26,705 nucleotides of DNA from a virus (lineage: Duplodnaviria > Caudoviricetes): positions 1-26,705 of the IMG/VR virus record IMGVR_UViG_3300020477_001602. The stretch is one strand, 5' to 3'. Below the pieces are notes generated by a model. The model was not told the origin of the DNA, did no database searches, and saw nothing but the letters and a program-made list of their open reading frames with translations. Shown one piece after another: positions 2,257-21,678 of this stretch. The position numbers were made by a program, and so were the translations under genes. Numbering within the stretch: the first letter of the stretch is position 1; each line of letters starts with the position of its first letter.

Positions 2257-2284
2257 AGTATACTAGGTTTTTTAAGTTTGTCAA
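2257..2284 (-). promoter_or_regulatory. sigma70-like promoter TTGACA-N16-TATACT, probably leaderless transcript
   Basis: -35 at 2284-2279 (overlaps the dnaE stop), -10 at 2262-2257, ATG (2250) follows after 6 nt. Confidence 0.8.
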
Positions 2285-4836
2285 CTATTTTTTAGCTCTG
2301 ATAGTTTTGTGTATATTTTGTTTGATTGAATTGCTATTTTATCCGCAAAAACAACTTCATCCTTTTTGACTCCGTTAACGATAACAATGTTATTTTCTTC
2401 TGGCGGAGAGCCATTATTTGAGGTAACGCTGTTTTCAAGTCTCTTGGAAAAGATCATCACTTTCATACTACCCGTTTCATCTTCTACGAACATTCTCATG
2501 TAGTCGTTTCCGTTTCTAGATGTTCCGAAATACGGCTTATCCTCTACAGTGCCCACAAAAGATACCCTGTCGTCAACTTCGGAATCTTCCACTTCCCTCA
2601 ATGATAAAAGGTTGTCCTTTTTTTCTCTGAAAATATCCTTCAAAGGCATATTGTATGTATAGCCGAGAAGATGTTTTTCGTAATACCAGTTTGCAAAAGT
2701 TTCTGAATATTTATTTTTAAAATAAATTTGTTTATATGGTTCTGATTTTGTTTTAATTGTGTTTAGCCTTGTATCTCTTATTATTGGCTTTCCTTTTTCG
2801 TCTTTTTTTTCTTTTAATTTTTTGACTATTTCAACTAAATCGTACTTTTGCGACTCAGCCAGCAGCATGGCAGATTTTTTTTCTTTTTTAGTTAAGATGT
2901 TCCAAAGTTGAGCTTCATAAACAACTTTGCTTCTGGACACCGAGAATCCCTCGAATGTGCCAGCTTGAATTAGTGCTGATAGTATGCCAATCGTAAGACC
3001 TGATTCCTTTGCTCCTTCAAAAACTTCGAATTTATTAGAGTAATTATCTTTAAAATTGTTCAGTTTTTCAATTGATTTATCTGATATTCCTTTTATGGAT
3101 AAAAGACCAAATCTAATATCTTTACCCTCTACTTTAAAATCCATATCAGATTTAATAATATGAGGGGGTAAAAGTTTTATATCAAAATGAGACATTTCTC
3201 TTTGAATTTTAGATATTTCACTAATTGGGTCTGGCTCATGTCTGGTCATTTTCAACAAGCTTAAAAAGAATTGTTGGGGGTACTTAAATTTTAAATAAAT
3301 AGTTGTAGCAGCTAAGGCGGCGTATGAAATAGAGTGAGATTTATTAAAAGAATAATTAGCAGAATCTTCTAATACTCTCCATAGAATATCTCCAATTTCT
3401 GATTCAAGATTGTTTTCCTTAATTTTATTTTTAATTTTCCTTTTCCACTTGCGAACTTCTTTTACCTTTTTCTTTCCTACAATACGCCTTAAGATTTCCG
3501 CTTCATCAAGAGTAAAGCCAATCTTGTTAGCCATTTTCATTAGCTGCTCTTGGTATAAGGCTACGCCGCCTGTTGATGTTAGAATGTCGTCAAAAAATGG
3601 GTGGATTGGATCATAGGTTCCGTCCTCTACGTAGGCCGCGTATTGATCCACAAAATTAAGCGCCCCCGGACGAGCCAAGGCTAATACGGCGCTTAGTTCT
3701 TCCAAATTCTTGGGTTTAACTTTCTGACAGACACGATAATTCGTTTCAGCTTCAATTTGGAACAAGCCATGAGGTGTTCTGAGGTATTGAAGATTATCGT
3801 AGATAAGTTGATCTTTTAAGTTTACATCAGTAATATCAATACCAACGCTTTTGCATACATCATCCACGACTGAAACGGCGCGTAGACCAAGAATATCAAG
3901 TTTAACATTAAAAATTGATATCCAATTCATGTCATACGAAGCAACGTGACTCTTTTTATCTGAGGTTAATTCCGTTGGACAACAATCGTTTAGCTTATCG
4001 AACGACAAAGAAATTGCGGAAGGATGTACCCCTTTATTTTTTATCAGCCCTTTGATCTTTAGTGATATATTGTAAGCTTCTTCATTTTCATCACACCATT
4101 TTTTAAACTCATCCTGCTCGGCGTAAGCCTCTTTAATGTCCTTAATTTGGCCAAAAACCTTTGGAATAAGAGAAGAAACTTTATTCATTTCTTGCTCGCT
4201 TTTATTGGCCGCTACTTTTCCGCATTCCTTAATGCATAGTTTTCCGCTTAATGTGTTTAAGGTAATTATTTTTGAGGTTTTACCTTTAAACTTTTCTTCA
4301 AGGTATTCAATAACTTTCTGACGATTGTAGTAACAGATGTCAAGGTCTACATCCATCATCAATGAGCCGTCTAAATATGTTATGTCATTTATTATGGTTT
4401 TTTTAGCTCTGATTTTTGATATAAATCTTTCAAAATAAAGCCCGTGCTCAATAGGGTCTATCTTGGTTACTCCAATAAAATATAAAACCAAACTTCCTGC
4501 TGCGCTGCCACGACCAAGTCCAGTTGGAATGTTGCTTTCTTTGCAGTAGTTAATTACATCCCATACTAAAAGAAGGTAATCAATAAATCCAAGCTCTTTA
4601 ATTGTCTTAAGCTCATGCTCAAGTCTTTCGGAGTACTCATTTTTTCTTTCTTCACTAACATCTTTCCATACTTTTTCTTTACCGTTTTCGCACAAAGCTT
4701 TTAAAAAGTTTTCGTTATCAATATCCTCGCTTACGCCAAGAGATCTTTTGTATTTGTTATTAATTTCGAAAGATGGCAATCGCACACCATGCAGGGGGAT
4801 ATCTAGTTCTTTAAATTGGTCTGTAAAATCAGGCAT
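2281..4836 (-). CDS. dnaE: DNA polymerase III alpha-type (family C) catalytic core lacking the PHP domain
   Basis: GRGSAAGSLV, FERF, DVDLD catalytic aspartates, KLDILGL, LYQEQ, YSFNKSHS, IRFGLLSIKGI (HhH), C-terminal OB fold; N-terminus begins at the post-PHP 'LPxF' region. Confidence 0.93.
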   Translation of the reverse strand: MPDFTDQFKELDIPLHGVRLPSFEINNKYKRSLGVSEDIDNENFLKALCENGKEKVWKDVSEERKNEYSERLEHELKTIKELGFIDYLLLVWDVINYCKESNIPTGLGRGSAAGSLVLYFIGVTKIDPIEHGLYFERFISKIRAKKTIINDITYLDGSLMMDVDLDICYYNRQKVIEYLEEKFKGKTSKIITLNTLSGKLCIKECGKVAANKSEQEMNKVSSLIPKVFGQIKDIKEAYAEQDEFKKWCDENEEAYNISLKIKGLIKNKGVHPSAISLSFDKLNDCCPTELTSDKKSHVASYDMNWISIFNVKLDILGLRAVSVVDDVCKSVGIDITDVNLKDQLIYDNLQYLRTPHGLFQIEAETNYRVCQKVKPKNLEELSAVLALARPGALNFVDQYAAYVEDGTYDPIHPFFDDILTSTGGVALYQEQLMKMANKIGFTLDEAEILRRIVGKKKVKEVRKWKRKIKNKIKENNLESEIGDILWRVLEDSANYSFNKSHSISYAALAATTIYLKFKYPQQFFLSLLKMTRHEPDPISEISKIQREMSHFDIKLLPPHIIKSDMDFKVEGKDIRFGLLSIKGISDKSIEKLNNFKDNYSNKFEVFEGAKESGLTIGILSALIQAGTFEGFSVSRSKVVYEAQLWNILTKKEKKSAMLLAESQKYDLVEIVKKLKEKKDEKGKPIIRDTRLNTIKTKSEPYKQIYFKNKYSETFANWYYEKHLLGYTYNMPLKDIFREKKDNLLSLREVEDSEVDDRVSFVGTVEDKPYFGTSRNGNDYMRMFVEDETGSMKVMIFSKRLENSVTSNNGSPPEENNIVIVNGVKKDEVVFADKIAIQSNKIYTKLSELKNS

Positions 4837-7732: not shown

Positions 7733-8368
7733 TTATAAGCTGAAAGCTTTTAATTTGTTTTCAAATGTATCGTTAAATTTAGGAAGAGGATTTAGCATTT
7801 TATTCTGCAAAGCAAACGTTCCCTTTTTTGAGCTATCTTTGTCGTAATTATAGTTTAATTCTGAGGGGAGATCTCTTTCGGGAATCCAACCCATTAAATA
7901 AACTTTGCACTTTTCAAATTCGTCCGTAAAGTCAGCTAAAGTGGCTATGTAAATATTTGATTTATGTCTTTCGTGTGGTCTTACAAAAAGGTTATAAGTT
8001 AAAATATCCTTTGAGCGGTATCTAATTCTCCCCCCCTTTACGTCAATTGGGTAGGGGGGTAAATCGATACCCATGTCTCCTTTATATTTTTGCTGATTTT
8101 GTTTATCTCTGGTCTCAAAATAAGTCTTGCCGCCGTCTCTAAAGAACCATTCGCTAGCTACAAATGTTGTAAGTTGTCCGGTGAATTGATATTCTATGTT
8201 ATTTTTTCGCTTATTTTTTGCGGAGACTATTTGAGATTCGCAGTTTATTAAGTTGCACTCTTTGGCGTATTCCATGCAAGTATTTGCCGTAGATGGCTTA
8301 ATGGAGAATCTGATTATGTCTTTATGAGTTATCACTTTTTTCTCTCCAGCTTTCAATACAAAACTCAT
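7733..8368 (-). CDS. putative PD-(D/E)XK restriction-endonuclease-like protein (true start possibly GTG at 8335)
   Basis: GDMGIDL..PIDVKG and KVYLMGWI resemble phage REase-like nucleases; GGAGAG precedes the GTG at 8335. Confidence 0.5.
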   Translation of the reverse strand: MSFVLKAGEKKVITHKDIIRFSIKPSTANTCMEYAKECNLINCESQIVSAKNKRKNNIEYQFTGQLTTFVASEWFFRDGGKTYFETRDKQNQQKYKGDMGIDLPPYPIDVKGGRIRYRSKDILTYNLFVRPHERHKSNIYIATLADFTDEFEKCKVYLMGWIPERDLPSELNYNYDKDSSKKGTFALQNKMLNPLPKFNDTFENKLKAFSL

Positions 8369-9089
8369 CGCTCGTCATATGTTCTAGCTCTGGCTTGTCT
8401 AGGGAGCTTCTGTTGTTGATACATCTAAAGGTTAAGTATGATTTAAAATCTTTCTTTTGTTTGTAGTATACGCTCTGGACACTTTGAATTTCCGCTTTAT
8501 CATTCTTAGATTGATATATAACCTTGTCCCTTATTATTTTATCAAAGGGTAGATCATTATCTTCGAGAAAGTATGTTGGAGAGCAAAATTCAAACTCTGG
8601 CACACACACCGAACCGTATAATGAATTATTAAATATGTATGAATCGTAAAATGGAACAGCTAAGGCAAGGTCTTTGTTGCTCCAGTATTTTTTTAAGGTT
8701 TTATAGTCTGTCCTTGGTTGATAATAGAAGCCGTCTCTCGCCGCTGACGTAAAAATTTTAATTAACCTTTTGTACCCATCTTCGTTCTTCATGAAGATTA
8801 AAATTTTACTATTCGTTTTTAAGGAATCTGAATCTTTTTGAGACATTTCGTTGCATATAGTAATTCTTAGTCCAAAAATTAATTTTAACTCTAACTCTTT
8901 TGAGTTTTTGTACGCCTCAAGGAAGCCGCTCATGCTATCATCTACTACAGTGGCTTCTTTAAGTTTATTTTCAGCGCATATATCAAAGATTGAATCTGCT
9001 TCGTCGGGTGTAGATTCGCTGTTTCTGAGCGTCAAAATTGATTTGCCAATGCTATAATGAGATTTAAAAATAGGCAAAATTTCATTCAT
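8322..9089 (-). CDS. stand-alone PHP domain of DNA polymerase III alpha (N-terminal half of split DnaE)
   Basis: KSHYSIGKS, VVDDSMSGFLEAYK, LKLIFGLRI, KNEDGYKRLIKI, FYYQPRTDY align by eye with DnaE PHP motifs (HSxYS, TDxxxxxG, KPIxGxE, AKNxxGYxNL, FYYxPRID). Confidence 0.85.
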   Translation of the reverse strand: MNEILPIFKSHYSIGKSILTLRNSESTPDEADSIFDICAENKLKEATVVDDSMSGFLEAYKNSKELELKLIFGLRITICNEMSQKDSDSLKTNSKILIFMKNEDGYKRLIKIFTSAARDGFYYQPRTDYKTLKKYWSNKDLALAVPFYDSYIFNNSLYGSVCVPEFEFCSPTYFLEDNDLPFDKIIRDKVIYQSKNDKAEIQSVQSVYYKQKKDFKSYLTFRCINNRSSLDKPELEHMTSDEFCIESWREKSDNS

Positions 9090-10788: not shown

Positions 10789-10895
10789 TTGTCTTTATGG
10801 AAGATCATCGAATAAATAAAAATAAATATACTTACGATAAGGTAAAATATCGTGAGAAGCAAAAGCCATATAGACTCGATTATTTTCTTTATCAT
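10785..10895 (-). CDS. small single-pass membrane protein (36 aa, MIKKIIESIWLLLLTIFYLIVSIFIFIYSMIFHKDK), not in the ORF track
   Basis: Exactly fills the intergenic gap with ATGA stop/start overlaps at both ends; one long hydrophobic stretch. Confidence 0.65.
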   Translation of the reverse strand: MIKKIIESIWLLLLTIFYLIVSIFIFIYSMIFHKDK

Positions 10896-12007
10896 ATTGT
10901 TAACCCTAAGGCTAACAAATTCTCATTAAACTCTTTGATAGGCACGTGAGAGTAAGAAAGATTGCTTGGGTATTGCGTCCAATAATCTCTGTGCTGCTCA
11001 TGATCCCCTTCAAGTTTGCCTTCTGCCATAATTTTGGCGACACTGGATATGGGGAATGCCGTTGCTTTTTGCATAGCGGTAAAGCCGTTTGGCTGATTCT
11101 CTTCGTCTCCTGCGATTAATGCATTTTTTTCCCAAGTCAATTCTCCTGCGTTAGACCAAATTTTCATCATTACAATATCAATTACTGCTGATTTTGGTTG
11201 ACACCCCTTAGCGAAAACTTCTTCCACGCAATCTGCGGAAACGTTATCTAGCAAGAACTTTGCTACATCCCTATGCCCTTGGTATCGAACTGTTCTGTAA
11301 TCGCAATTTAAAACGCCCCTCTCTTTCATTTCTTTTATCGTGTGGGAAGCGCCTCCGCTGGTATAAAAAACCTCCAAGGGGCCAAATTGATCTCCACCAT
11401 TTATAGGGAGTACCCCATCTAGCGCGGGTACTACTTTTATTTCACCATTTTCTAGCACAGTGCAGTCGTCTTTGTATTCATTTATTAATCCATCTATAGA
11501 CCAAGTATTGATGTAATTTAAGGGGGGGTTAACTCTGTGCGAAGGTAGTCCTCCTACCATCATTTTTATATTATGGACTTGGCCGTTGTGTTGTAGGGTC
11601 TTGTAGGCCCATTCAGCCATTATGTTTATCCATCCCGGCGCTAATCCTAAATCGGTAAACACTGGTTTGGTGGCTTTTTCTTTCGCGTATTCGTTTATAT
11701 TACGCGATACATCTACTCTGCCACCTAAATCGCAATAACGTACGCCGTTATCGATGCACCATTTGCCTACGGCTTCTGTTTGATGGTAGGGCAAGCTGCT
11801 AATAACCACATCTGGCTTTATCTCTACATCTAAACCCTCGCAAATCTCTTCTGAATTTTCAACAATAAAAAAATTATTATTGCCTTCTGGCATGTTGTTC
11901 GCGGCGTCTGGGTTAGCGTCCATACCCACGACTTCAAAGCCGAATTTATCCATCGCATAAGCGATAGCTTTCCCCATTCTCCCTACTCCTAATACTAGTG
12001 CTTTCAT
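10892..12007 (-). CDS. lysine 6-dehydrogenase / saccharopine dehydrogenase family oxidoreductase
   Basis: Rossmann GVGRMG, SSLPY, YCDLGG, DLGLAPGWIN, VGGLP..PPLNY..WSIDGLINEY, FYTSGG, YRTVRYQGH, TAMQKATAFP. Confidence 0.85.
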   Translation of the reverse strand: MKALVLGVGRMGKAIAYAMDKFGFEVVGMDANPDAANNMPEGNNNFFIVENSEEICEGLDVEIKPDVVISSLPYHQTEAVGKWCIDNGVRYCDLGGRVDVSRNINEYAKEKATKPVFTDLGLAPGWINIMAEWAYKTLQHNGQVHNIKMMVGGLPSHRVNPPLNYINTWSIDGLINEYKDDCTVLENGEIKVVPALDGVLPINGGDQFGPLEVFYTSGGASHTIKEMKERGVLNCDYRTVRYQGHRDVAKFLLDNVSADCVEEVFAKGCQPKSAVIDIVMMKIWSNAGELTWEKNALIAGDEENQPNGFTAMQKATAFPISSVAKIMAEGKLEGDHEQHRDYWTQYPSNLSYSHVPIKEFNENLLALGLTI

Positions 12008-12369
12008 GGTTTTCCGTAATTTACTTTCTTGTAATTAATTTTTATCTCTTTAAAGCCTTCGCTATATTTTTCAACCACTTCAGCTTTAACTCCATTGCGT
12101 TCGCAGTTTAAGTCTCTTACTTTAATAGCTAACCTTCCTATTTCTTCTAATGGTAAATCTTTTCCGCTTCTTATATCTCCTTCTGTATCCCAAAGTCTAC
12201 CGTTAACATCATACAGCCTATTAATATAATCATTTATTTCGTGAGCGTTATATTGATCTATCTCTTCTTTGTAAGCATTTAACTCTTCACTAACATCTTC
12301 AGAAGTTCTTTCCGACTTTAACTTAGTGATGGTATATCTATCCACTACTTCTGATATAGGCATTTTCAT
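12004..12369 (-). CDS. DUF6165-like helical protein
   Basis: PISEVVDRYTI..LK, VNGRLWDTEGDIR and N.ER..VK resemble the DUF6165 pattern; ATGA-coupled on both sides. Confidence 0.6.
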   Translation of the reverse strand: MKMPISEVVDRYTITKLKSERTSEDVSEELNAYKEEIDQYNAHEINDYINRLYDVNGRLWDTEGDIRSGKDLPLEEIGRLAIKVRDLNCERNGVKAEVVEKYSEGFKEIKINYKKVNYGKP

Positions 12370-12509
12370 TTCTTTGGTAATTTTACTCTCTTTCTGTGCC
12401 CGCCTTGCCCTTTATATTTCTTCATTCCTTTAGATCTGTTGCTGCATCCTTGGCGTGTTTTTTTGCCAGCAGTCTTTTGATAACCTAATCCGGATTTATT
12501 AATAGACAT
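12366..12509 (-). CDS. small basic phage protein (47 aa, MSINKSGLGYQKTAGKKTRQGCSNRSKGMKKYKGQGGHRKRVKLPKK), not in the ORF track
   Basis: GAGGAG RBS upstream; ATGA overlap with the next gene; KKTRQG...KKY(K/R)GQG motif recalled from small phage proteins. Confidence 0.75.
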   Translation of the reverse strand: MSINKSGLGYQKTAGKKTRQGCSNRSKGMKKYKGQGGHRKRVKLPKK

Positions 12510-12615
12510 ATTTGTTTACTCCTCGTTTTTTTTCTCTTTTCTTTTTTCTTTTTTCCGCTGGCGTTAGCTTTGACGGTTTCTTTTTTTCTTTTTTTCTTTT
12601 TTCTTTATTAGCCAT
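12499..12615 (-). CDS. very basic micro-protein (38 aa, MANKEKRKKEKKKPSKLTPAEKRKKKREKKRGVNKYVY), not in the ORF track
   Basis: ATG 2 nt after the ALDH stop; open frame explains the T-rich tract on the + strand. Confidence 0.6.
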   Translation of the reverse strand: MANKEKRKKEKKKPSKLTPAEKRKKKREKKRGVNKYVY

Positions 12616-12617
12616 AA

Positions 12618-14147
12618 TTATTTCATTCCTTGTGGGAAGGTTAGTTTATCAGCGTGGTTTACAGTCCAGCTAACTTCGTGCGTGACGGCCCTGTAGGTTC
12701 TGGCAGCGCTCGGGAATCCGTTGCCGGACTTTTTTACCCCGCCAAAAGAAAGGTGAGATTCTGCTGCAATTGATCCGCCATTCCAATAAATCATTCCTGC
12801 TTCGCATTCGTCTCTTAAGACTCGTGCTTTTCTAAAATCATTTGTAAGTACACCAACCGCAAGCCCGTAATCAGTATCATTATAGATACGAATGGCATCT
12901 TCGAGATCGTCAAAAGGAATAATAGCAACGTGAGGGCCAAATACTTCATTCTTTAAGTAAGGTACATCGCGCCATTCAGTTTTGTAAATCATAAAAGAAG
13001 AAAAGAATGCTCTACCATTTATATCTGTATACTTAGGTTCAAGCAAAACTTCTGCGTCTGGGTCAGAAAGAACCATGTCATTATATTTTTTAACCTTTTC
13101 AAATCCTTGTTTGTTAATTAGCGGTCCATAGTTTTGGCTTTCGTCTGGTACATAATCTACCCAACCAAGTGCGTCAGGCGTACCTGAGGTACTAACCACT
13201 TTTTGAAAGGGGTTGCCAGTTTTCAAATCAGCCGCAGCTTTAGTGAAATCTTTAGCAAATTGATCAACTATAGATCTTTGTACTATCATTCTACCGGACG
13301 AAACACATCGTTGCCCAGACAGCTTGTGTGCGCTTGCTATGGCGGCTTCTAGAGCCAGCTTAGCTTCTACGTCATCAAAGATAATACAGGCTGATTTGCT
13401 GCCCATTTCGCAAGAAGTGGTTTTGTGCCAGCTTTCTGCTGCTACCTTCCTAATGTGCTGTCCAACCTCGGCAGAACCAGTAAAACAAATATGATCGATA
13501 TCAGAGCGAGCCAAAATATCACCAGCAGAACCGTCGCCATGCACCAAGCTAACGACTCCATGAGGCAGACCAGCTTCCTCATAAATTTCGACAGCCATTT
13601 GTGTTGACATTGGAGCATCTTCGCTAGGCTTAATTATTACAGTGTTTCCTTCAACAATCGCTGGAGCAGCACACCAGTACGCCCCGATAGCTAAAGGAAA
13701 ATTAAATGGTGATATAATAGCTATTACACCCTTGGGCTTGCGAAGCATATAAGAATCTTTATCTTCTATTTCGGATGCGACAGCTTCACCGTGGGAGTAT
13801 CTACCAGAACCAAACGCAAATTGAGCCATATGTAAAGCCTCATTTACTTCTGCGATAGATTCATTATAGTTTTTTCCCGTTTCCAAGGAAATTACGGTGG
13901 CCAACTCTTCTCTTCGTCGCTCAATTATTTGAGCAACTTTATACATATAATCTGAACGTACAAATCGGCTTACTTTTTTCCATCTATCAAAAGTATTACG
14001 GGCAGATTCTACCGCTGTCTCTACTTCGATATGGCCACTTAACGGGAACGCTCCTTGAGCTTTTCCAGTAGCAGGGTTCAGTTTGGTATACATTTCTTCA
14101 GTGGCTTGCCACTTGCCGTTGATATAATTTCTTCCTTCGAATTGCAT
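12618..14147 (-). CDS. NAD(P)+-dependent aldehyde dehydrogenase (candidate alpha-aminoadipate semialdehyde dehydrogenase); start reassigned to 14147
   Basis: NYINGKW, ISPFNFP, KPSE, FTGSAEVG, EMGSKS, SGQRC (catalytic Cys), EVFGP, FGGVKKSGNG; the MQFEG start removes the overlap with the upstream gene. Confidence 0.93.
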   Translation of the reverse strand: MQFEGRNYINGKWQATEEMYTKLNPATGKAQGAFPLSGHIEVETAVESARNTFDRWKKVSRFVRSDYMYKVAQIIERRREELATVISLETGKNYNESIAEVNEALHMAQFAFGSGRYSHGEAVASEIEDKDSYMLRKPKGVIAIISPFNFPLAIGAYWCAAPAIVEGNTVIIKPSEDAPMSTQMAVEIYEEAGLPHGVVSLVHGDGSAGDILARSDIDHICFTGSAEVGQHIRKVAAESWHKTTSCEMGSKSACIIFDDVEAKLALEAAIASAHKLSGQRCVSSGRMIVQRSIVDQFAKDFTKAAADLKTGNPFQKVVSTSGTPDALGWVDYVPDESQNYGPLINKQGFEKVKKYNDMVLSDPDAEVLLEPKYTDINGRAFFSSFMIYKTEWRDVPYLKNEVFGPHVAIIPFDDLEDAIRIYNDTDYGLAVGVLTNDFRKARVLRDECEAGMIYWNGGSIAAESHLSFGGVKKSGNGFPSAARTYRAVTHEVSWTVNHADKLTFPQGMK

Positions 14148-14157
14148 GGTATGATAT

Positions 14158-14721
14158 TTACTGTTTGACTGTACTTTCCATAAGTTTCTTAACGCTGTCT
14201 TTACAAAATCCAGCGCCTTCTCTATTAATGAATTCATACATTACTCCTGTAAGTTCTGAGGGTTTCGTAAACACTTGTGTTAAATCTGGATCTTTGCATG
14301 TAATTGGTTCCTCGGAATAAAATTCTGCATACCCTTTTTCTTTCCACTCATTCATTACTAGTTGCACATCTTCAACTTGATAGGCGATATGATGAACTCC
14401 CCCTACTCCTCCTCGTTCAGCAACCCAGTCTCCAACGATAGACCCCTTTGTCCCGTCGCTAACAAAAATTTCTGGAGGAGCGTGGTATTCTAGCGCGTTT
14501 TCAACTTCTACTTCGTTAGGGGAGAAGTGAGTTTTTAAGTGCCACAAATTTGTATCTTCAACTCTATTCTCTGGAGGTGTTAGAGCTAAACAATCCGCTT
14601 TAGATCCATCATCGAAAGTTATTTCAAACTCTGTTCCTATCTTATAGCCAAACGCATTTAAAAAGAAATCAGCAGATTTACGCCTATCTTTTACCCTGTA
14701 AGCTATATGATCCAACCTCAT
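14158..14721 (-). CDS. VOC-superfamily metalloenzyme resembling the HPPD C-terminal domain / methylmalonyl-CoA epimerase
   Basis: LDHIAY (H5), GVHHIAYQVED (H111), LTQVFTKP, YEFINREGAGF (E163). Confidence 0.8.
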   Translation of the reverse strand: MRLDHIAYRVKDRRKSADFFLNAFGYKIGTEFEITFDDGSKADCLALTPPENRVEDTNLWHLKTHFSPNEVEVENALEYHAPPEIFVSDGTKGSIVGDWVAERGGVGGVHHIAYQVEDVQLVMNEWKEKGYAEFYSEEPITCKDPDLTQVFTKPSELTGVMYEFINREGAGFCKDSVKKLMESTVKQ

Positions 14722-14738
14722 GACTATTTGACTATTTA

Positions 14739-15014
14739 TTAGTTATTTTTATTCTGAGCTAATAATAAAAGGTAGTCAATAAGATTTCTTGCTTTTTTTA
14801 TTTTAATTATTTTGTTGTATTGTTTTTCTCCGATTTTAGAATTTTTCTTAGAAAATGATTTTTCCCCCCAATTTTCCCCATATCTGAAAGAATTAAATAT
14901 TTCGCTTCTTTCTTTCCCGTTTAGAGTTTCTTTAATTATTACAATGATTTCTTCGTCTTGTACGATTTCGTCAAGAGTAAGCTCTAGCTCTCTAAGATAT
15001 TCGTTTCTTTCCAT
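14739..15014 (-). CDS. hypothetical protein (91 aa)
   Basis: Co-oriented ORF between the primase and VOC genes; no motif recognised. Confidence 0.6.
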   Translation of the reverse strand: MERNEYLRELELTLDEIVQDEEIIVIIKETLNGKERSEIFNSFRYGENWGEKSFSKKNSKIGEKQYNKIIKIKKARNLIDYLLLLAQNKNN

Positions 15015-15907
15015 TCTCGTATTTCTTCTTGGCTCATGTCTCCAAAGTCGTTTTTTGTAGGAAAAGCTACTTGAATTTGGTGGGGATCAAAGTAATTTTT
15101 AAGTTTTTTTACAGCGGATTTTACAGCCTTATTGCCAGCGTTGTTATTATTTGAATCATCGTTAAAAGATACGAAAATTTTATCAGGGTCTAACTTAATT
15201 AATAAGCCGATAAATGAAGGACTTAAGTTTAATCCAAAAACTACTATAGTATTTTTTACGCCAGCCTCCCACAGAGAGAGCATGTCTCCGACGCTTTCTA
15301 TTAGTATTATTTCTTTTTTGTTTTTAATTATTGGATAATTTACTTGTAGGGGGTACTTCCATTCTGATGTTTTACCTCTATGCAACCATTTCGGAAAAGA
15401 TTTTCCTTCTGGAATTTCATTAACGTATCTACCCGTAACGCCTACTAGTTCGTTTTTAAAATTAAAAATTGGAAATACATATCTGTTTGCCATCGTTCCG
15501 TTTTTAACTACACCTCCTTTAAAAAGGTTGAGGGTATCTAAAGATACCCCCCTTGCTTTCCAGTATTCGTGATCCGGAATTATTTTTTCTAGATACGATA
15601 ATGGAAATGTTTTTCTACTAGAGACTGACGGTTTGTGCTCTCTTTTAATTTCTCCATTAATTGACCATTTATCTTTTAGGACTGTTTTGGCTTCATTAAC
15701 GCTTTTTAAATTTAAAGAAAGTTGAATGAGGTATTCAAACGAACCGCTAATCTGTTTGCTGAAATCAATAAAGTGGCCAGTATCCTTCCTAACTGAGAGA
15801 ACTGTCCCACTGCTTGAGTCGCGATATATGGGTTTCATACGAAATTCTCTCCCGTTATCCTTAATATTTGAATAACCAACGTCAAGAAGAATACTTTTAA
15901 AATCCAT
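14984..15907 (-). CDS. DNA primase (DnaG-like TOPRIM)
   Basis: RYVFPIFN..ELVGVTGR, ILIESVGDMLSL (TOPRIM Glu), FNDD..AG, NDFGD; TAATG-coupled to the helicase. Confidence 0.85.
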   Translation of the reverse strand: MDFKSILLDVGYSNIKDNGREFRMKPIYRDSSSGTVLSVRKDTGHFIDFSKQISGSFEYLIQLSLNLKSVNEAKTVLKDKWSINGEIKREHKPSVSSRKTFPLSYLEKIIPDHEYWKARGVSLDTLNLFKGGVVKNGTMANRYVFPIFNFKNELVGVTGRYVNEIPEGKSFPKWLHRGKTSEWKYPLQVNYPIIKNKKEIILIESVGDMLSLWEAGVKNTIVVFGLNLSPSFIGLLIKLDPDKIFVSFNDDSNNNNAGNKAVKSAVKKLKNYFDPHQIQVAFPTKNDFGDMSQEEIREWKETNILES

Positions 15908-17394
15908 TACAGTACTCCTCCATCATTATTGTTATTTTCGCTTAGGTCGAATTGCATGTTTTCTCTAGCCGCTATATCGGCTGCTGTTCCTGACTCTTCG
16001 ACTCCGAAATTTCTTACGGTAAAATTTATAAAATTATTTTCAAACCTTACCGTACCATCTTCAGACACTCTTCTTACTAAATCGTGGTGTCCCGCTGCTT
16101 CTTTACCTTGGAATCTGGTTTTTATTGGCACTAATTTATGCGTACCGAATTCTTCACCATCATTAGCCATTTCATCAACGGTTTTTCTTCTAAAAATTCC
16201 TACGAAAGATGCAAACCATTGCAATCTGTCTGATAGTGCTATGGCGGAACTGTCATCTACAACGGCCCCACCTCTTCTATTGAAGTTTTCTCCACTCCTA
16301 TTCATCTGCATGGCAGTAATTATCGGGCAATTTAATTCTTCGGATAATTTTTTAAGCTTGTCTACTTTGTCTCCGATAGCTTGGTACTCTGCCCAATTGT
16401 TTCCGACTTTTTCGCCAGTAAGTTTTATGTAATCGTAACCAAGGATAAAAGGGTTGCCTCTTCCAACGTTAGACAAGGCCCACCTTCTTACGAATGAGCA
16501 TAGTTGATCAATGTTTTTGTTTCCAACTGGGTAATGATATACTTTATCGGAACCCATTTCTTTGAAAGCCTCTCGGACTTTTTTGACCAACTCCGGATTT
16601 TTTCTCCAGTTTCCTGTCTCTAAATGCCAGAGAGAAACTCCACTCATAGCAGATGCAATTCTGAATTTTACGTCTTGAGTGTCCATTTCTGTATCTAGTA
16701 TCAAAGCTGGCACGTTGCTGCTCTTTGAAACCTTGCGACACAAATCCATTATGAATGTGGATTTCCCTTGCCCCGGCCTAGCTACAACAGCGTAAAGATT
16801 TTGCGGCCTAAGCCCTCCGTACATTTTGTTGAACTCTGGGTAAGGTGTCGCAAACCCAAACTCATCGACGGGGTTTTCCCCTCTCTCTTCTACCATTGCT
16901 CCTATATCGTCCAATAAAAGCTCTGGTTCGTCTTCCATTGTTTCGAACTCTTTTACTTGATCTCCGTACAGGGCATCAATGTCGTTAATAATTTCATCAA
17001 TTTCCTTTTCTCCGTTTTCTTTCAGGTATTTTCTCCCTCTATCAAGCGTATGGTACAAGGTTCTTCTGACTGTTAGCTTTGCAAGCTCCCTTGTTGAATC
17101 CATAAGTCCTTTTGCGTTTATGGACGTAAACGAGATTGAATCTAAGTAATCATAAATGTTAACATCATCCTTGAAGGTGATGCCTATGTTTTTTATTTTC
17201 TCTGCAAGGACTACTGTATCTACGCTCTCGCTTTTAAGGAGCGAGCTTCTAAGCGTACAGAAGATGGTTTGATGAACTTCGTTTACAAAATCTTTTTCAG
17301 AGATATACCTTTCGATCTCTGGAAAAAGTTTTGGGTTTTTGATTAAGCCTCCTAGCACGTGTCTTTCTATCTGTATTGAATATATCGAATCCAT
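15907..17394 (-). CDS. dnaB: replicative DNA helicase, DnaB-like
   Basis: N-terminal IERHVLGGL..DF...HQTIF domain, Walker A ARPGQGKS, DTEM, DYIKL, AMQMNR, KTR.G. Confidence 0.92.
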   Translation of the reverse strand: MDSIYSIQIERHVLGGLIKNPKLFPEIERYISEKDFVNEVHQTIFCTLRSSLLKSESVDTVVLAEKIKNIGITFKDDVNIYDYLDSISFTSINAKGLMDSTRELAKLTVRRTLYHTLDRGRKYLKENGEKEIDEIINDIDALYGDQVKEFETMEDEPELLLDDIGAMVEERGENPVDEFGFATPYPEFNKMYGGLRPQNLYAVVARPGQGKSTFIMDLCRKVSKSSNVPALILDTEMDTQDVKFRIASAMSGVSLWHLETGNWRKNPELVKKVREAFKEMGSDKVYHYPVGNKNIDQLCSFVRRWALSNVGRGNPFILGYDYIKLTGEKVGNNWAEYQAIGDKVDKLKKLSEELNCPIITAMQMNRSGENFNRRGGAVVDDSSAIALSDRLQWFASFVGIFRRKTVDEMANDGEEFGTHKLVPIKTRFQGKEAAGHHDLVRRVSEDGTVRFENNFINFTVRNFGVEESGTAADIAARENMQFDLSENNNNDGGVL

Positions 17395-17895: not shown

Positions 17896-18992
17896 GACTT
17901 TTTAAGAACATCTCTAAATTTAAAAAACAAAAACTTCCCTATTTCTTTATTTTCTTCAAAATATTTTTTAAGATTATCTAAACCTTGGTGTTGCTTTTCT
18001 AGGTCAAGACCTGTTTCATTTTTCACTTCTTCTATGAGCGTGTCTGATATAGTTATCCAAGCGCCTTTTCTAGTAGCCATTTCCCATTGAAGCATCATGT
18101 CAACTACTTCATATTCAACCCATATACTTTTCCCGTTTGTTCCTCCGTATCTAATGGGGTATCGAATCAAGCTTCCAGTTTTTTCGTTGGGAGATTTTTT
18201 AAATATAACCTTACACCAGTGCCCAAGTATATCCCCCTTACCACTTGCTTCTGAGGATATAATATCTTTTAAGTGGCGTTCTTGAAATTCTAGAATCCAA
18301 TCGCTGTAATGCAACATTGCATTTCCTCCGGAGGCGTTGGTAACCCTTGGATCTGTCCTCTCGTAAGGGTTAATGGTGACCTTGCTTCTTACTTGAGAAA
18401 TCATGTAGCAAATATGCCCTCTGGTCGTAAGGCCTAAAGCCATCTTGCGTAAAAAATCCGAACTTAATAGGGCTCCTCCAGCTACTTTGTTTGCGTCTTC
18501 TGGCCCTTTTTCTAAATCAGCCTTAGGAACGAGAGAATCCATAGAGTCAATTATAAACATATATTTATAGTTTTCAGGATTGTTTTTAACTAGCTCTCTC
18601 ATTAGGTTAATTACTGATTCGTAGGTATTACTTTTGTATACAAACCATTTTTTTTCATCTTCATCTATTCCTGCGCGATCAATCATTTCCTGCGTCAATC
18701 TTCCTTCGGACTTGATGTAAACGGCCATAGCTTTGTCCATTTTTTGAAAATTACGAGCGAAAGCTAACGCGCATGATGTTTTTCCGCCTTCTGTGATACC
18801 TGAAGAACGTATGATTCCGGGGCCTATCCCTCCCCCCATTTCTATATCTAGCAAAAGGCTTCCGCTAGACACTACGTAATTGCGCTCTTCTTCAAAGTTA
18901 TAGTGGTCCCCTTTGTTCTGCTCCAAGTAAGATTGGATTTGGCTAACGGGAGATATTCCTTCGGATGGTTCAGTTTTTTTCTTTCTCGGCAT
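17892..18992 (-). CDS. recA: RecA/UvsX-like recombinase
   Basis: SSGSLLLDIEMGGGI, Walker A GITEGGKTS, IIDSMDSL, ISQVR, SGGNAMLHYS. Confidence 0.88.
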   Translation of the reverse strand: MPRKKKTEPSEGISPVSQIQSYLEQNKGDHYNFEEERNYVVSSGSLLLDIEMGGGIGPGIIRSSGITEGGKTSCALAFARNFQKMDKAMAVYIKSEGRLTQEMIDRAGIDEDEKKWFVYKSNTYESVINLMRELVKNNPENYKYMFIIDSMDSLVPKADLEKGPEDANKVAGGALLSSDFLRKMALGLTTRGHICYMISQVRSKVTINPYERTDPRVTNASGGNAMLHYSDWILEFQERHLKDIISSEASGKGDILGHWCKVIFKKSPNEKTGSLIRYPIRYGGTNGKSIWVEYEVVDMMLQWEMATRKGAWITISDTLIEEVKNETGLDLEKQHQGLDNLKKYFEENKEIGKFLFFKFRDVLKKS

Positions 18993-19341
18993 TTTTTATA
19001 AACTCCAATAAATTTAATTTTTTATTCCTCGACAAACTGTTACTGCCCCCAACTTTTTCATCCTTTAATTCATATTTTTTGCCTTTAAGTTTAGATAGGC
19101 TAAAATTGGATAACCTTAAGTAACGCATGTATTCAGTTTTGAAAAGAGATTTGTTTTCTTTAGTGAGAAAATAAGTGAGAGACGTTACTGGTTGGGCTTC
19201 TACCGTTTTCCAGAAACCTAAATCTGGGATCATATTAAGCATAAATTTAGCTAATCGATACTCTTTCCCGCGATTGCATTTAGAAGGGTCTTTTAGGAAG
19301 AGATGAATGATTATTTCATATGCCTTTTTAGTAAACACCAC
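18970..19341 (-). CDS. hypothetical protein (123 aa, GTG start)
   Basis: First gene after a sigma70-like promoter; overlaps the recA start. Confidence 0.65.
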   Translation of the reverse strand: MVFTKKAYEIIIHLFLKDPSKCNRGKEYRLAKFMLNMIPDLGFWKTVEAQPVTSLTYFLTKENKSLFKTEYMRYLRLSNFSLSKLKGKKYELKDEKVGGSNSLSRNKKLNLLEFIKNAEKEKN

Positions 19342-20885: not shown

Positions 20886-21173
20886 ATGAAAAAATTAAAA
20901 ATATATTTGTTTATTTTTTTCGCATCTGCGCTGGTGTTAGGTTGCAGGGCGGTAAAGGCTGTTGGAAACTTTTTTACAGGTACTACCGAAAAGGCAATAG
21001 AAACTACAGAAAAGGTGGTGGGCTCTACTATAAAAGGGGTTCCTGTAGAGGTGGAGCATAATTTTAGTTTAGAACCTGTGATAATTTGGGCTATTATAGC
21101 TATAATGATAGCTCTTGCGGCTAGATATTTAATTAATAAGTATGTCTACGGTAAAAAGATTACTAAAAAATAA
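20886..21173 (+). CDS. lipoprotein with C-terminal TM helix (start reassigned to 20886)
   Basis: MKKLKIYLFIFFASALVLG-C lipobox; C-terminal VIIWAIIAIMIALAA TM followed by a basic tail. Confidence 0.7.
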   Translation: MKKLKIYLFIFFASALVLGCRAVKAVGNFFTGTTEKAIETTEKVVGSTIKGVPVEVEHNFSLEPVIIWAIIAIMIALAARYLINKYVYGKKITKK

Positions 21174-21678
21174 ATTTTTTAGAGTAACGTTAGTTTTAAC
21201 TGTGCTGTTATTACCGTTTACTTATGACTATAGGTTCGTAATTGTAGATGGCGATAGCATGTATCCGACCTATACCGACTGGGAGCTCGTGGTTGAGGAA
21301 AGAGTTTCTTCTTTAGGTAAGGAATGGAAGCCAAAAAGGGGGGATGTTATCGTTGTTGTAGATGAAACTGGAGACAAATTAATCAAAAGGGTGGTGGCTG
21401 TCCCCGGAGAAACAGTAAGGATACGGGATGGCTATATCTATGTAAACGAAAAGGAATACAAAGACTCTTATACTCATATTAGAATAGGAATTTTGTTGGT
21501 TGACCCCGAAGGTGTGCCTTATCGAAGCTGGGAAACTGGAGAAAAGGTTTACGAATATATTCCAAAAGATTTTACCAAGCTTAAAGAAGGTGAGTATTGG
21601 GTTATAGGTGACAATAGAAATTATTCTTGGCACGGAATAGTAAAGTTGGAGGAAGTGGAAGGGAAAGTTTTATACTAA
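21142..21678 (+). CDS. lepB: signal peptidase I (peptidase S26)
   Basis: N-terminal TM, GDSMYPT (catalytic Ser), RGDVIV, LIKRVVAVPGE (catalytic Lys), GDNRNYS. Confidence 0.9.
   Translation: MSTVKRLLKNKFFRVTLVLTVLLLPFTYDYRFVIVDGDSMYPTYTDWELVVEERVSSLGKEWKPKRGDVIVVVDETGDKLIKRVVAVPGETVRIRDGYIYVNEKEYKDSYTHIRIGILLVDPEGVPYRSWETGEKVYEYIPKDFTKLKEGEYWVIGDNRNYSWHGIVKLEEVEGKVLY

Follow-up and report, generated by a model that had tools for sequence, protein, structure and literature searches.

Enzymes with L-lysine 6-dehydrogenase activity (EC 1.4.1.18) are known from Geobacillus and Agrobacterium, and hydroxymandelate synthase (HMS) carries out the same decarboxylation-hydroxylation chemistry as the enzyme HglS. 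In HglS, as described by Thompson et al. 2020 (PMC7286885), the metal ligands are His70, His226 and Glu294, Arg74 binds the distal carboxylate of 2-oxoadipate, the R74A variant is inactive, and neither 2-oxoglutarate nor 2-oxopimelate is turned over. Some Bacteroidota carry a run of dehydrogenase, HglS and piperideine-6-carboxylate (P6C) dehydrogenase genes (L102/L160, G170). Here we describe a cassette of three genes, encoding a VOC-family metalloenzyme, an aldehyde dehydrogenase (ALDH) and a member of the saccharopine dehydrogenase family, in a 26.7 kb virus record originating from marine metagenomes (IMG/VR record IMGVR_UViG_3300020477_001602, 26,705 nucleotides; the whole stretch is hereafter the window). 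Judged from sequence comparisons, the cassette probably oxidises host lysine to aminoadipate and then, following transamination by the host, yields 2-hydroxyglutarate by way of the VOC protein. Like the Bacteroidota run, it would cover the same three steps and has no adjacent aminotransferase in the stretch read; unlike that run, whose steps are likewise predicted, it draws on other family members for two of the three reactions.

A predicted lysine-oxidising cassette in a phage genome

The three open reading frames (ORFs) are intact and lie on the minus strand, in the transcription order VOC, ALDH, dehydrogenase. The VOC gene (14158..14721, minus strand) encodes a single-domain protein of 187 aa, with PF13669 and PF00903 over cut-off, that we predict to be a compact HglS-like 2-oxoadipate dioxygenase/decarboxylase. 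It is followed by the gene for a predicted amino-acid semialdehyde dehydrogenase of 509 aa (12618..14147, minus strand; PF00171, 400 bits). The longest ALDH ORF opens at 14237, within the VOC gene; the likely start is 14147, 10 nt past the VOC stop, where homologue matches begin. The dehydrogenase gene (10892..12007, minus strand) encodes a lysine 6-dehydrogenase-like NAD(P) enzyme of 371 aa with PF16653 and PF03435 over cut-off. The first-pass annotation had described three co-oriented enzymes downstream of a helicase and primase and interleaved with micro-genes, and this layout holds: a DnaB helicase gene, a primase gene and a 91-aa ORF lie upstream, and three small ORFs link the ALDH gene to the dehydrogenase gene through a 2-nt gap and then overlaps of 11, 4 and 4 nt. 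The genes thus abut or overlap, as in a single transcript.

The dehydrogenase is related to lysine 6-dehydrogenase

Within about 370 aa, the dehydrogenase combines an NAD-binding GxGxxG motif with a saccharopine dehydrogenase C-terminal domain, as expected of a lysine 6-dehydrogenase. A profile built from 68 homologues (A3) found its best solved match, over the full length, in Pyrococcus horikoshii PH1688 (PDB 3abi; E 3.5e-46), with saccharopine dehydrogenases at E 1e-24 to 3e-17 and carboxyspermidine dehydrogenase 8deb at E 7.7e-5 over the NAD-binding part only. PH1688 is known as an assayed lysine 6-dehydrogenase. The phage enzyme resembles it in length and in its PF03435 and PF16653 architecture. 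Unlike known lysine 6-dehydrogenases, it belongs to a separate, mostly viral clade and is named by no NCBIfam model; its nearest named cellular relatives are alphaproteobacterial members of 367 aa, at about 30% identity, and a name look-up for the clusters of 10 distant dehydrogenases returned almost no names. In a quick tree of 56 rows, which included neither an assayed lysine dehydrogenase nor a homospermidine synthase, the phage clade was sister (SH-aLRT 94) to three bacterial genes, namely Agrobacterium and Nitratireductor plasmid genes and L160, the last from a Bacteroidota run in which HglS and P6C dehydrogenase follow. That this key branch is unstarred, in a tree of this kind, tells against leaning on it. 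Taken together, lysine dehydrogenase appears to be its closest counterpart, ahead of saccharopine dehydrogenase and of carboxyspermidine dehydrogenase.

It is scarcely credible that the dehydrogenase is instead a polyamine synthase (carboxyspermidine dehydrogenase or homospermidine synthase) whose neighbours are incidental. Those enzymes have the same Pfam domains, and homospermidine synthase is encoded by phages, as PMC9992855 describes. However, the nspC-linked carboxyspermidine dehydrogenases formed the most distant group in the tree, and the match to their solved representative is confined to the NAD-binding part. The carboxyspermidine dehydrogenase model NF043000 gave no match to the window protein at E 0.001 and 415 bits for a control (L155), and no homospermidine synthase label occurred among the 60 of 61 PDB matches listed. 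Profile and tree, the latter with homospermidine synthase outside it, therefore keep the phage enzyme apart from the carboxyspermidine dehydrogenases, a grouping that the first-pass annotation had regarded as fatal to its reading.

A predicted lean of the ALDH towards six-carbon semialdehydes

The ALDH has its catalytic residues in their motifs (Asn149, Lys173, Glu247, Cys281 and Glu401). In ALDH7A1, aminoadipate is contacted by Glu121, Arg301 and the Gly461-Ala462 loop, with counterparts in pyrroline-5-carboxylate (P5C) dehydrogenase, according to PMC13162559, PMC5786444 and PMC11362210. The equivalents in the phage ALDH are Glu102, Arg280-Cys281 and an Ala-Ala-Glu anchor loop, in register with the P6C dehydrogenase of a Bacteroidota locus (L058) by pairwise alignment. 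Arginine precedes the catalytic cysteine in 31 of 31 viral ALDHs, whereas lysine does so in all five P5C dehydrogenase references. An arginine at this position is common to other ALDH families. The PutA enzyme of PMC5786444 has it as well, so that the residue alone does not exclude P5C activity. The phage ALDH also shares a C-terminal Gln-Gly tail with the P6C dehydrogenases of L058 and L059, which is absent from four P5C dehydrogenase references.

The ALDH differs from ALDH7 and P6C dehydrogenase in being 29% identical and in forming a clade with Planctomycetota ALDHs that adjoin class III aminotransferases. Family scores speak against the P6C assignment: the protein reached 247 bits on the P6C dehydrogenase model NF050084 (cut-off 730), scored higher on models for α-ketoglutarate semialdehyde dehydrogenase and P5C dehydrogenase, stayed below the P5C-type cut-offs (289 of 648 bits for NF002852 and 260 of 660 for TIGR01237) and passed no equivalog family cut-off. 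An ALDH7-type identity, as considered in the first-pass annotation, thus survives in the retained equivalents of Glu121, Arg301 and the anchor loop and fails at the family cut-off. The residues mark the ALDH as a putative amino-acid semialdehyde dehydrogenase that leans towards six-carbon substrates and with which P5C activity is compatible; it may serve glutamate semialdehyde too.

The VOC protein is a predicted analogue of HglS

The protein search returned 1,735 members of the VOC family, Atlas clusters of which are mostly viral, and PF07063 (DUF1338) was absent among the VOC matches at E 0.01. By sequence, a His-His-Glu set is conserved, with His5 in 211 of 212 homologues and His111 (or 110) and Glu163 in all 212. 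Arg9, which follows the first histidine at the spacing of HglS Arg74 (His+4), was present in 210 of the 212 (119 of 120 protein matches, 47 of 48 viral and 44 of 44 GTDB sequences). Epimerase-like controls have alanine at His+4 in 27 of 27 cases and arginine in none. We assign His5, His111, Glu163 and Arg9 as key residues on the basis of this conservation.

The AlphaFold2 model of the protein (pLDDT 84) aligned best in VIA-align with HMS (Z 17.1, root-mean-square deviation 2.5, 155 residues aligned), specifically with its catalytic C-terminal domain including the C-terminal helix; rice HglS aligned at Z 13.1 (deviation 2.6, 158 residues). An extra C-terminal strand-helix extends the alignment with HMS and HglS over residues 1-187, whereas epimerases end near 170. 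The VOC protein lacks the N-terminal domain of HMS and HPPD and their aromatic-pathway neighbours, and its arginine-bearing site suits a dicarboxylic rather than an aromatic substrate; it scored 23.8 bits on the HPPD/HMS model TIGR01263 (cut-off 277), being 187 aa long as against 330-450 aa for the two-domain enzymes. With HglS (Pseudomonas putida HglS, rice FLO7, 6w1k) it shares the fold, the His-His-Glu set, the arginine at His+4 and, in Bacteroidota, the slot before P6C dehydrogenase; it differs in size (HglS has about 300 aa in Bacteroidota loci and the rice chain, or more), in the absence of PF07063 and in an identity of about 20%, and its sequence is nearer to the HPPD/HMS C-terminal domain and to methylmalonyl-CoA epimerase than to HglS. 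Longer forms are rare, at 2 of 334 candidates, one with a prohead-protease-like tail and one with an N-terminal part of unassigned kind.

An improbable alternative is that the ALDH and dehydrogenase make 2-aminoadipate and the VOC protein is an epimerase, isomerase or glyoxalase-type rider with a separate job. Several results do point away from HglS: methylmalonyl-CoA epimerase comes first both in Foldseek by E-value and in hidden Markov model searches, and in VIA-align it ties, at Z 13.0, with rice HglS and BH1468 (range 13.0-13.1). Glu84 and Phe86 are both near-invariant by sequence; if Glu84 is the one that falls at the fourth-strand position where the epimerase has a metal ligand (Gln/Glu), it could be a fourth ligand. 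The VOC gene also occurs without the ALDH and dehydrogenase pair in jumbo phages and most bacteria. Against a rider, the protein scored 41.7 bits on the methylmalonyl-CoA epimerase model TIGR03081 (cut-off 115), has Arg rather than Ala at His+4, possesses the strand-helix shared with HMS and HglS, and has HMS first by Foldseek query TM-score (0.66 versus 0.59 for the epimerase); moreover, VOC genes adjoin two unrelated semialdehyde dehydrogenase families. We therefore retain the prediction, made in the first-pass annotation, of a non-DUF1338 analogue of HglS, which is consistent with the arginine at His+4, the fold match and the HglS slot before P6C dehydrogenase in two Bacteroidota. Separately, a 110-member Atlas cluster of PF07063 (HglS) is labelled Nucleocytoviricota; giant viruses may carry a true HglS, as a parallel.

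The three genes co-occur in viral genomes

We scanned IMG/VR with the VOC family, which gave 43 loci (42 after leaving out that of the window), and with a dehydrogenase alignment, which gave 188 relatives, of which 80 were kept (79 besides the window's own). These loci include near-duplicates and come mostly from one lineage, so the counts are not independent. Of the 42 VOC-found loci, 24 have the trio within 10 kb, 23 of them in the same order, and in 27 the VOC gene lies directly before an ALDH gene. The remaining 18 comprise five cut within 5 kb, one with VOC and dehydrogenase and the ALDH just outside, and 12 with VOC alone, mostly in jumbo phages. Around the dehydrogenase-found loci, an ALDH gene was present within 8 kb in 66 of 79 and the trio in 47 of 79; where at least 7 kb of upstream sequence was available, the figures rose to 60 and 45 of 63. 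HglS was found in none of the 79. The genes do, then, co-occur in relatives, as the first-pass annotation supposed they should.

The genes that lie between the three vary from locus to locus, and the trio itself is retained. A phage with a contractile tail and another architecture (L022; terminase, sheath and tube genes) has the three genes side by side, and L041 keeps the trio with a VOC gene from another branch; most trio VOCs belong to one clade, so the counts largely reflect one inheritance. Among VOC-only records, an ALDH of the same clade was encoded elsewhere in 6 of 10 searched (49-54% identity) and a dehydrogenase in 1 of 12. Two findings weigh against a fixed three-gene unit: the 98%-complete jumbo phage records G001 and G012 have the VOC gene and no ALDH or dehydrogenase was found in them, and 19 of 79 dehydrogenase loci have an ALDH gene and no VOC gene within 8 kb. 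ALDH plus dehydrogenase is the pairing kept most constantly, and the VOC gene frequently joins it. A small HAD-like protein family also occurs in 20 of the 47 trio loci, usually inside the cassette between ALDH and dehydrogenase; on the window's own contig this gene lies outside it (L165 15094-15495).

Bacterial VOC homologues and P6C dehydrogenase

The VOC family is sparse in GTDB, with 49 loci in Bacteroidota, Planctomycetota and Verrucomicrobiota. Genome searches covered 45 VOC genomes, with L087 and L095-L097 left out of the 49 loci. In one Bacteroidota genome (L058) the VOC gene stands directly before a P6C dehydrogenase gene (767 bits on NF050084, over the cut-off of 730), and the same holds in L059, whose dehydrogenase is 92% identical to that of L058. 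These bacterial VOC homologues, preceding a standard P6C dehydrogenase, are 57-59% identical to the phage protein. HglS occupies the slot before P6C dehydrogenase in three of the five HglS loci of the same order as L058 and L059. In L049, the VOC gene precedes a phage-like ALDH gene and a class III aminotransferase gene.

P6C dehydrogenase was present in 21 of 22 VOC-bearing Bacteroidota and in 49 of 100 sampled Bacteroidota (Fisher p 3e-5, uncorrected for kinship), and it was over cut-off in none of the 23 other VOC genomes. As counterweights, this enrichment ignores both kinship and lifestyle, and bacterial VOC genes mostly stand alone. HglS (PF07063) was found in none of the 45 VOC genomes. 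We set aside mutual exclusion of HglS and the VOC family as an argument: the comparison has little power, with HglS in 5 of 201 and the VOC family in 1 of 201 genomes of a control order, and is weak evidence.

In Gemmataceae, four loci (L081-L084) share a conserved gene run made up of an arginine-dihydrolase-like, an enolase-superfamily and a VOC member, which suggests an undescribed Planctomycetota pathway.

Genes added to the cassette in relatives

Six of the 79 loci carry arginine-dihydrolase-like and lysine-aminotransferase-like genes beside the dehydrogenase, in the order ALDH, arginine-dihydrolase-like, lysine-aminotransferase-like, dehydrogenase, with the VOC gene in front in four. These long-cassette loci are L272, L275, L282, L293, L295 and L296; an OCD-family gene lies upstream in three. 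OCD-family genes occur in 8 of 79 loci overall, and proline dehydrogenase genes in 9 of 29 phage records. Jumbo phage G002, which has VOC and ALDH and no dehydrogenase, encodes a lysine 6-aminotransferase-like protein (TIGR03251, 503 bits against a cut-off of 521; next family 226) near a glutamate dehydrogenase-family gene (L177 6873-10909). We considered whether this aminotransferase simply replaces the dehydrogenase, which would fit G002, but six loci carry both, so that these candidates for lysine deamination do not merely stand in for each other. In jumbo phage G006, dehydrogenase, proline dehydrogenase and phosphoenolpyruvate (PEP) carboxykinase genes lie close together (L178 8049-11615). 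The gene sets of G002 and G006 suggest a wider amino-acid and anaplerotic metabolism.

The arginine-dihydrolase-like and aminotransferase-like neighbours and the proline dehydrogenases weigh against the lysine route. So does the search for a phage 2-aminoadipate aminotransferase, which gave no convincing candidate: PF00155 had weak partial matches in 3 of 29 phage records and PF00202 matched in 1 of 29, the records being mostly fragments. The added genes raise the alternative of a five-carbon series, in which ornithine (from arginine) is converted to glutamate semialdehyde and glutamate, and the VOC protein acts on 2-oxoglutarate or another short 2-oxo diacid. We consider this unlikely. It would explain the arginine-dihydrolase-like genes inside the cassette and before VOC in Gemmataceae, the OCD-family and proline dehydrogenase genes, and the fact that the closest cellular relatives of the ALDH (42-45% identity) adjoin PRK05769-type class III aminotransferases in Planctomycetota. 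It does not sit well with a dehydrogenase nearest to lysine-type enzymes, with phage aminotransferases that score 467-503 bits as lysine 6-transaminase and about 160 as ornithine aminotransferase, or with the arginine in the ALDH where five P5C dehydrogenase references have lysine. In addition, HglS is inactive on 2-oxoglutarate (PMC7286885), and glutamate enters metabolism without a dioxygenase.

It is quite unlikely that the same chemistry acts on a relative of lysine drawn from protein or cell-wall turnover, such as an N-epsilon-substituted or hydroxylated lysine, homoarginine-derived lysine or a seven-carbon diaminopimelate-derived acid. For all three proteins, identity to characterised families is about 30% at most and scores fall short of the equivalog cut-offs, and the lysine-aminotransferase-like gene beside the dehydrogenase in six loci would be redundant if both enzymes took free lysine. 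On the other side stand the bacterial VOC homologues placed before standard P6C dehydrogenases, and no recurring transport or deconjugating enzyme was seen in the cassette. Overall, the genes added in relatives support basic-amino-acid catabolism as a theme and suggest a shared ALDH, with individual enzymes that may take either lysine or ornithine.

Proposed pathway

In the lysine route that we favour, the phage dehydrogenase would remove the epsilon-amine of lysine to give aminoadipate semialdehyde/P6C, which the phage ALDH would oxidise to 2-aminoadipate. A host aminotransferase would convert this to 2-oxoadipate, the phage VOC protein would turn 2-oxoadipate into 2-hydroxyglutarate by decarboxylation and hydroxylation with Fe(II) and O2, and the host would return 2-hydroxyglutarate to 2-oxoglutarate. 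Where relatives have gained enzymes of arginine, ornithine or proline metabolism, their ALDH may also act as a glutamate-semialdehyde dehydrogenase. Since the known enzymes for all three phage steps are effectively one-way, the route would be catabolic. The expected benefit is two NAD(P)H, ammonia and glutamate nitrogen, and 2-oxoglutarate, which we would place at the time of DNA replication because the cassette often lies inside a replication gene run.

The same enzyme assignments could serve a different purpose, with the route run for what it makes and not as a source of fuel. The product could be 2-aminoadipate, pipecolate formed from P6C, or 2-hydroxyglutarate; the last might act as an osmolyte, be attached to glycans or proteins, or inhibit the 2-oxoglutarate oxygenases of the host. 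Alternatively, the route could deprive a host defence of lysine. Many glycosyltransferase and methyltransferase genes nearby would suit such a purpose, as would the omission of a transaminase by the phage and the failure to see a 2-hydroxyglutarate dehydrogenase among 98 large ORFs of a trio-bearing relative (G023). We nevertheless regard it as very improbable: the cassette has no recurrent ligase or transferase gene, and the accessory arginine-dihydrolase-like, proline dehydrogenase, glutamate dehydrogenase and PEP carboxykinase genes point to bulk amino-acid catabolism.

A broader proposal has, in our estimate, an even chance of being correct. A large group of marine phages would burn lysine by a route of its own, with the last step carried out by a second family of hydroxyglutarate synthases that is half-size, mostly viral and non-DUF1338; this family would also fill the HglS slot in some Bacteroidota and Planctomycetota and would be the smallest self-sufficient HPPD-type dioxygenase.

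Novelty and implications

The first-pass annotation knew of no such cassette in phages, and we likewise found no description of a viral cassette of this kind in full-text literature searches, whose scope lay outside subscription papers and supplements such as large tables of auxiliary metabolic genes. To our knowledge, catalogues of these genes do not usually report viral multi-step amino-acid catabolism. PMC9992855 deals with polyamine enzymes of viruses, and lysine 6-dehydrogenase is mentioned there only as a relative of homospermidine synthase. Bacteria are known to carry out the individual steps of the pathway; the novelty lies in their viral setting and in the compact enzyme family outside DUF1338. 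Routine labels ("saccharopine dehydrogenase", "aldehyde dehydrogenase", "glyoxalase") would hide the pathway. If our reading is correct, phages turn host lysine, and in relatives arginine and proline too, into reducing power, nitrogen and 2-oxoglutarate during infection, and about 1,700 small VOC proteins gain a function as minimal 2-oxoadipate dioxygenases. The family would then inform the origin of HPPD, HMS and HglS and explain lysine catabolism in bacteria without DUF1338. All three proposed steps are accessible to standard assays.

Viral origin and relatives

The window (G000) is a virus record, and family scans identified a phage-type replication run in it: a split DnaE, exonucleases, primase, DnaB, RecA/UvsX and ribonucleotide reductase. 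The first-pass annotation looked to terminase or capsid genes for proof of viral origin. None was detected in the window by family scan, and a further 23 kb of the same contig (G273/L024, 49.8 kb, 32% complete by CheckV) gave no structural match in the ORF list read and 14 ORFs scanned; that part of the evidence comes from trio-bearing G023 (178 kb, CheckV 100%), which has the same replication gene set, a large terminase, tail tip J and minor tail L. Matches in INPHARED were to uncultured huge-phage records only (one for the dehydrogenase, two for VOC).

Cassette-bearing phage-like contigs were also binned into GTDB metagenome-assembled genomes labelled Pseudomonadales and SAR202 (L094, L090/L134). 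The VOC protein of L094 is identical to that of viral L045; by this identity, and by gene content for L090/L134, these look like mis-binned phage contigs, and we did not take them as bacterial context, their genomes staying among the 45 above. A host in the Planctomycetota-Verrucomicrobiota-Chlamydiota group is hinted at by the cellular ALDHs closest to the phage enzyme, which are from Planctomycetota, and by a DUF1501 gene in L041. That locus also has a GlpX fructose-1,6-bisphosphatase gene between ALDH and dehydrogenase, with the DUF1501 gene nearby (11038-11949 and 17896-19149).

Small ORFs and other features of the window

Of the three small ORFs between ALDH and dehydrogenase, all on the minus strand, the first (12499..12615) would encode a basic peptide of 38 aa, 15 of them lysine; its status as a gene is uncertain, and tblastn among the loci, with a low-complexity query, found no homologues. 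The second (12366..12509), a Lys/Arg-rich ORF of 47 aa, is conserved near the dehydrogenase in relatives. It was present in 12 of 29 dehydrogenase-bearing loci including its own, and loci found by the peptide itself had a dehydrogenase within 4 kb in 21 of 26 cases, again including its own. Members of this family are 43-54 aa long and Lys/Arg-rich, usually lie just 5' of the dehydrogenase gene and stay beside it when gene order is shuffled; in 5 of 12 loci the end of the micro-ORF overlaps the beginning of the dehydrogenase gene (examples L002, L003, L006, L008 and L048). The peptide is possibly an amino-acid-sensing leader, or merely a basic phage peptide. The specific idea that, by overlapping the dehydrogenase start, it gates translation according to the supply of charged tRNA is a long shot. 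In one of the peptide-found loci (L217), OCD-family and proline dehydrogenase genes come first. The third ORF (12004..12369; 121 aa) has no assigned function, with a weak DUF4254 match below cut-off; it matched only itself among the loci and is not conserved with the cassette.

The upstream gene run (14739..17394, minus strand) consists of the DnaB helicase gene (17394-15907), the primase gene (15907-14984) and the 91-aa ORF, and this helicase/primase arrangement is also found upstream in L001, L004, L005, L008, L012, L013, L015 and L018. Scans for promoters and terminators were uninformative (22 versus 21.6 expected and 9 versus 5.7, respectively), with no promoter signal over chance, and no tRNA genes were found in the window. 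In one metatranscriptome dataset, a single 172-nt contig of depth 2.8 matched 14113-14281 exactly, which is too little to count. DNA polymerase III alpha is split between a separate PHP gene and a catalytic gene (2281-4836 and 8322-9089, minus strand), with a proofreading exonuclease gene and glycosyltransferase genes between them, and this split recurs in relatives. The window also carries a signal peptidase I (S26) gene on the plus strand (21142-21678) that is conserved in 10 related loci.

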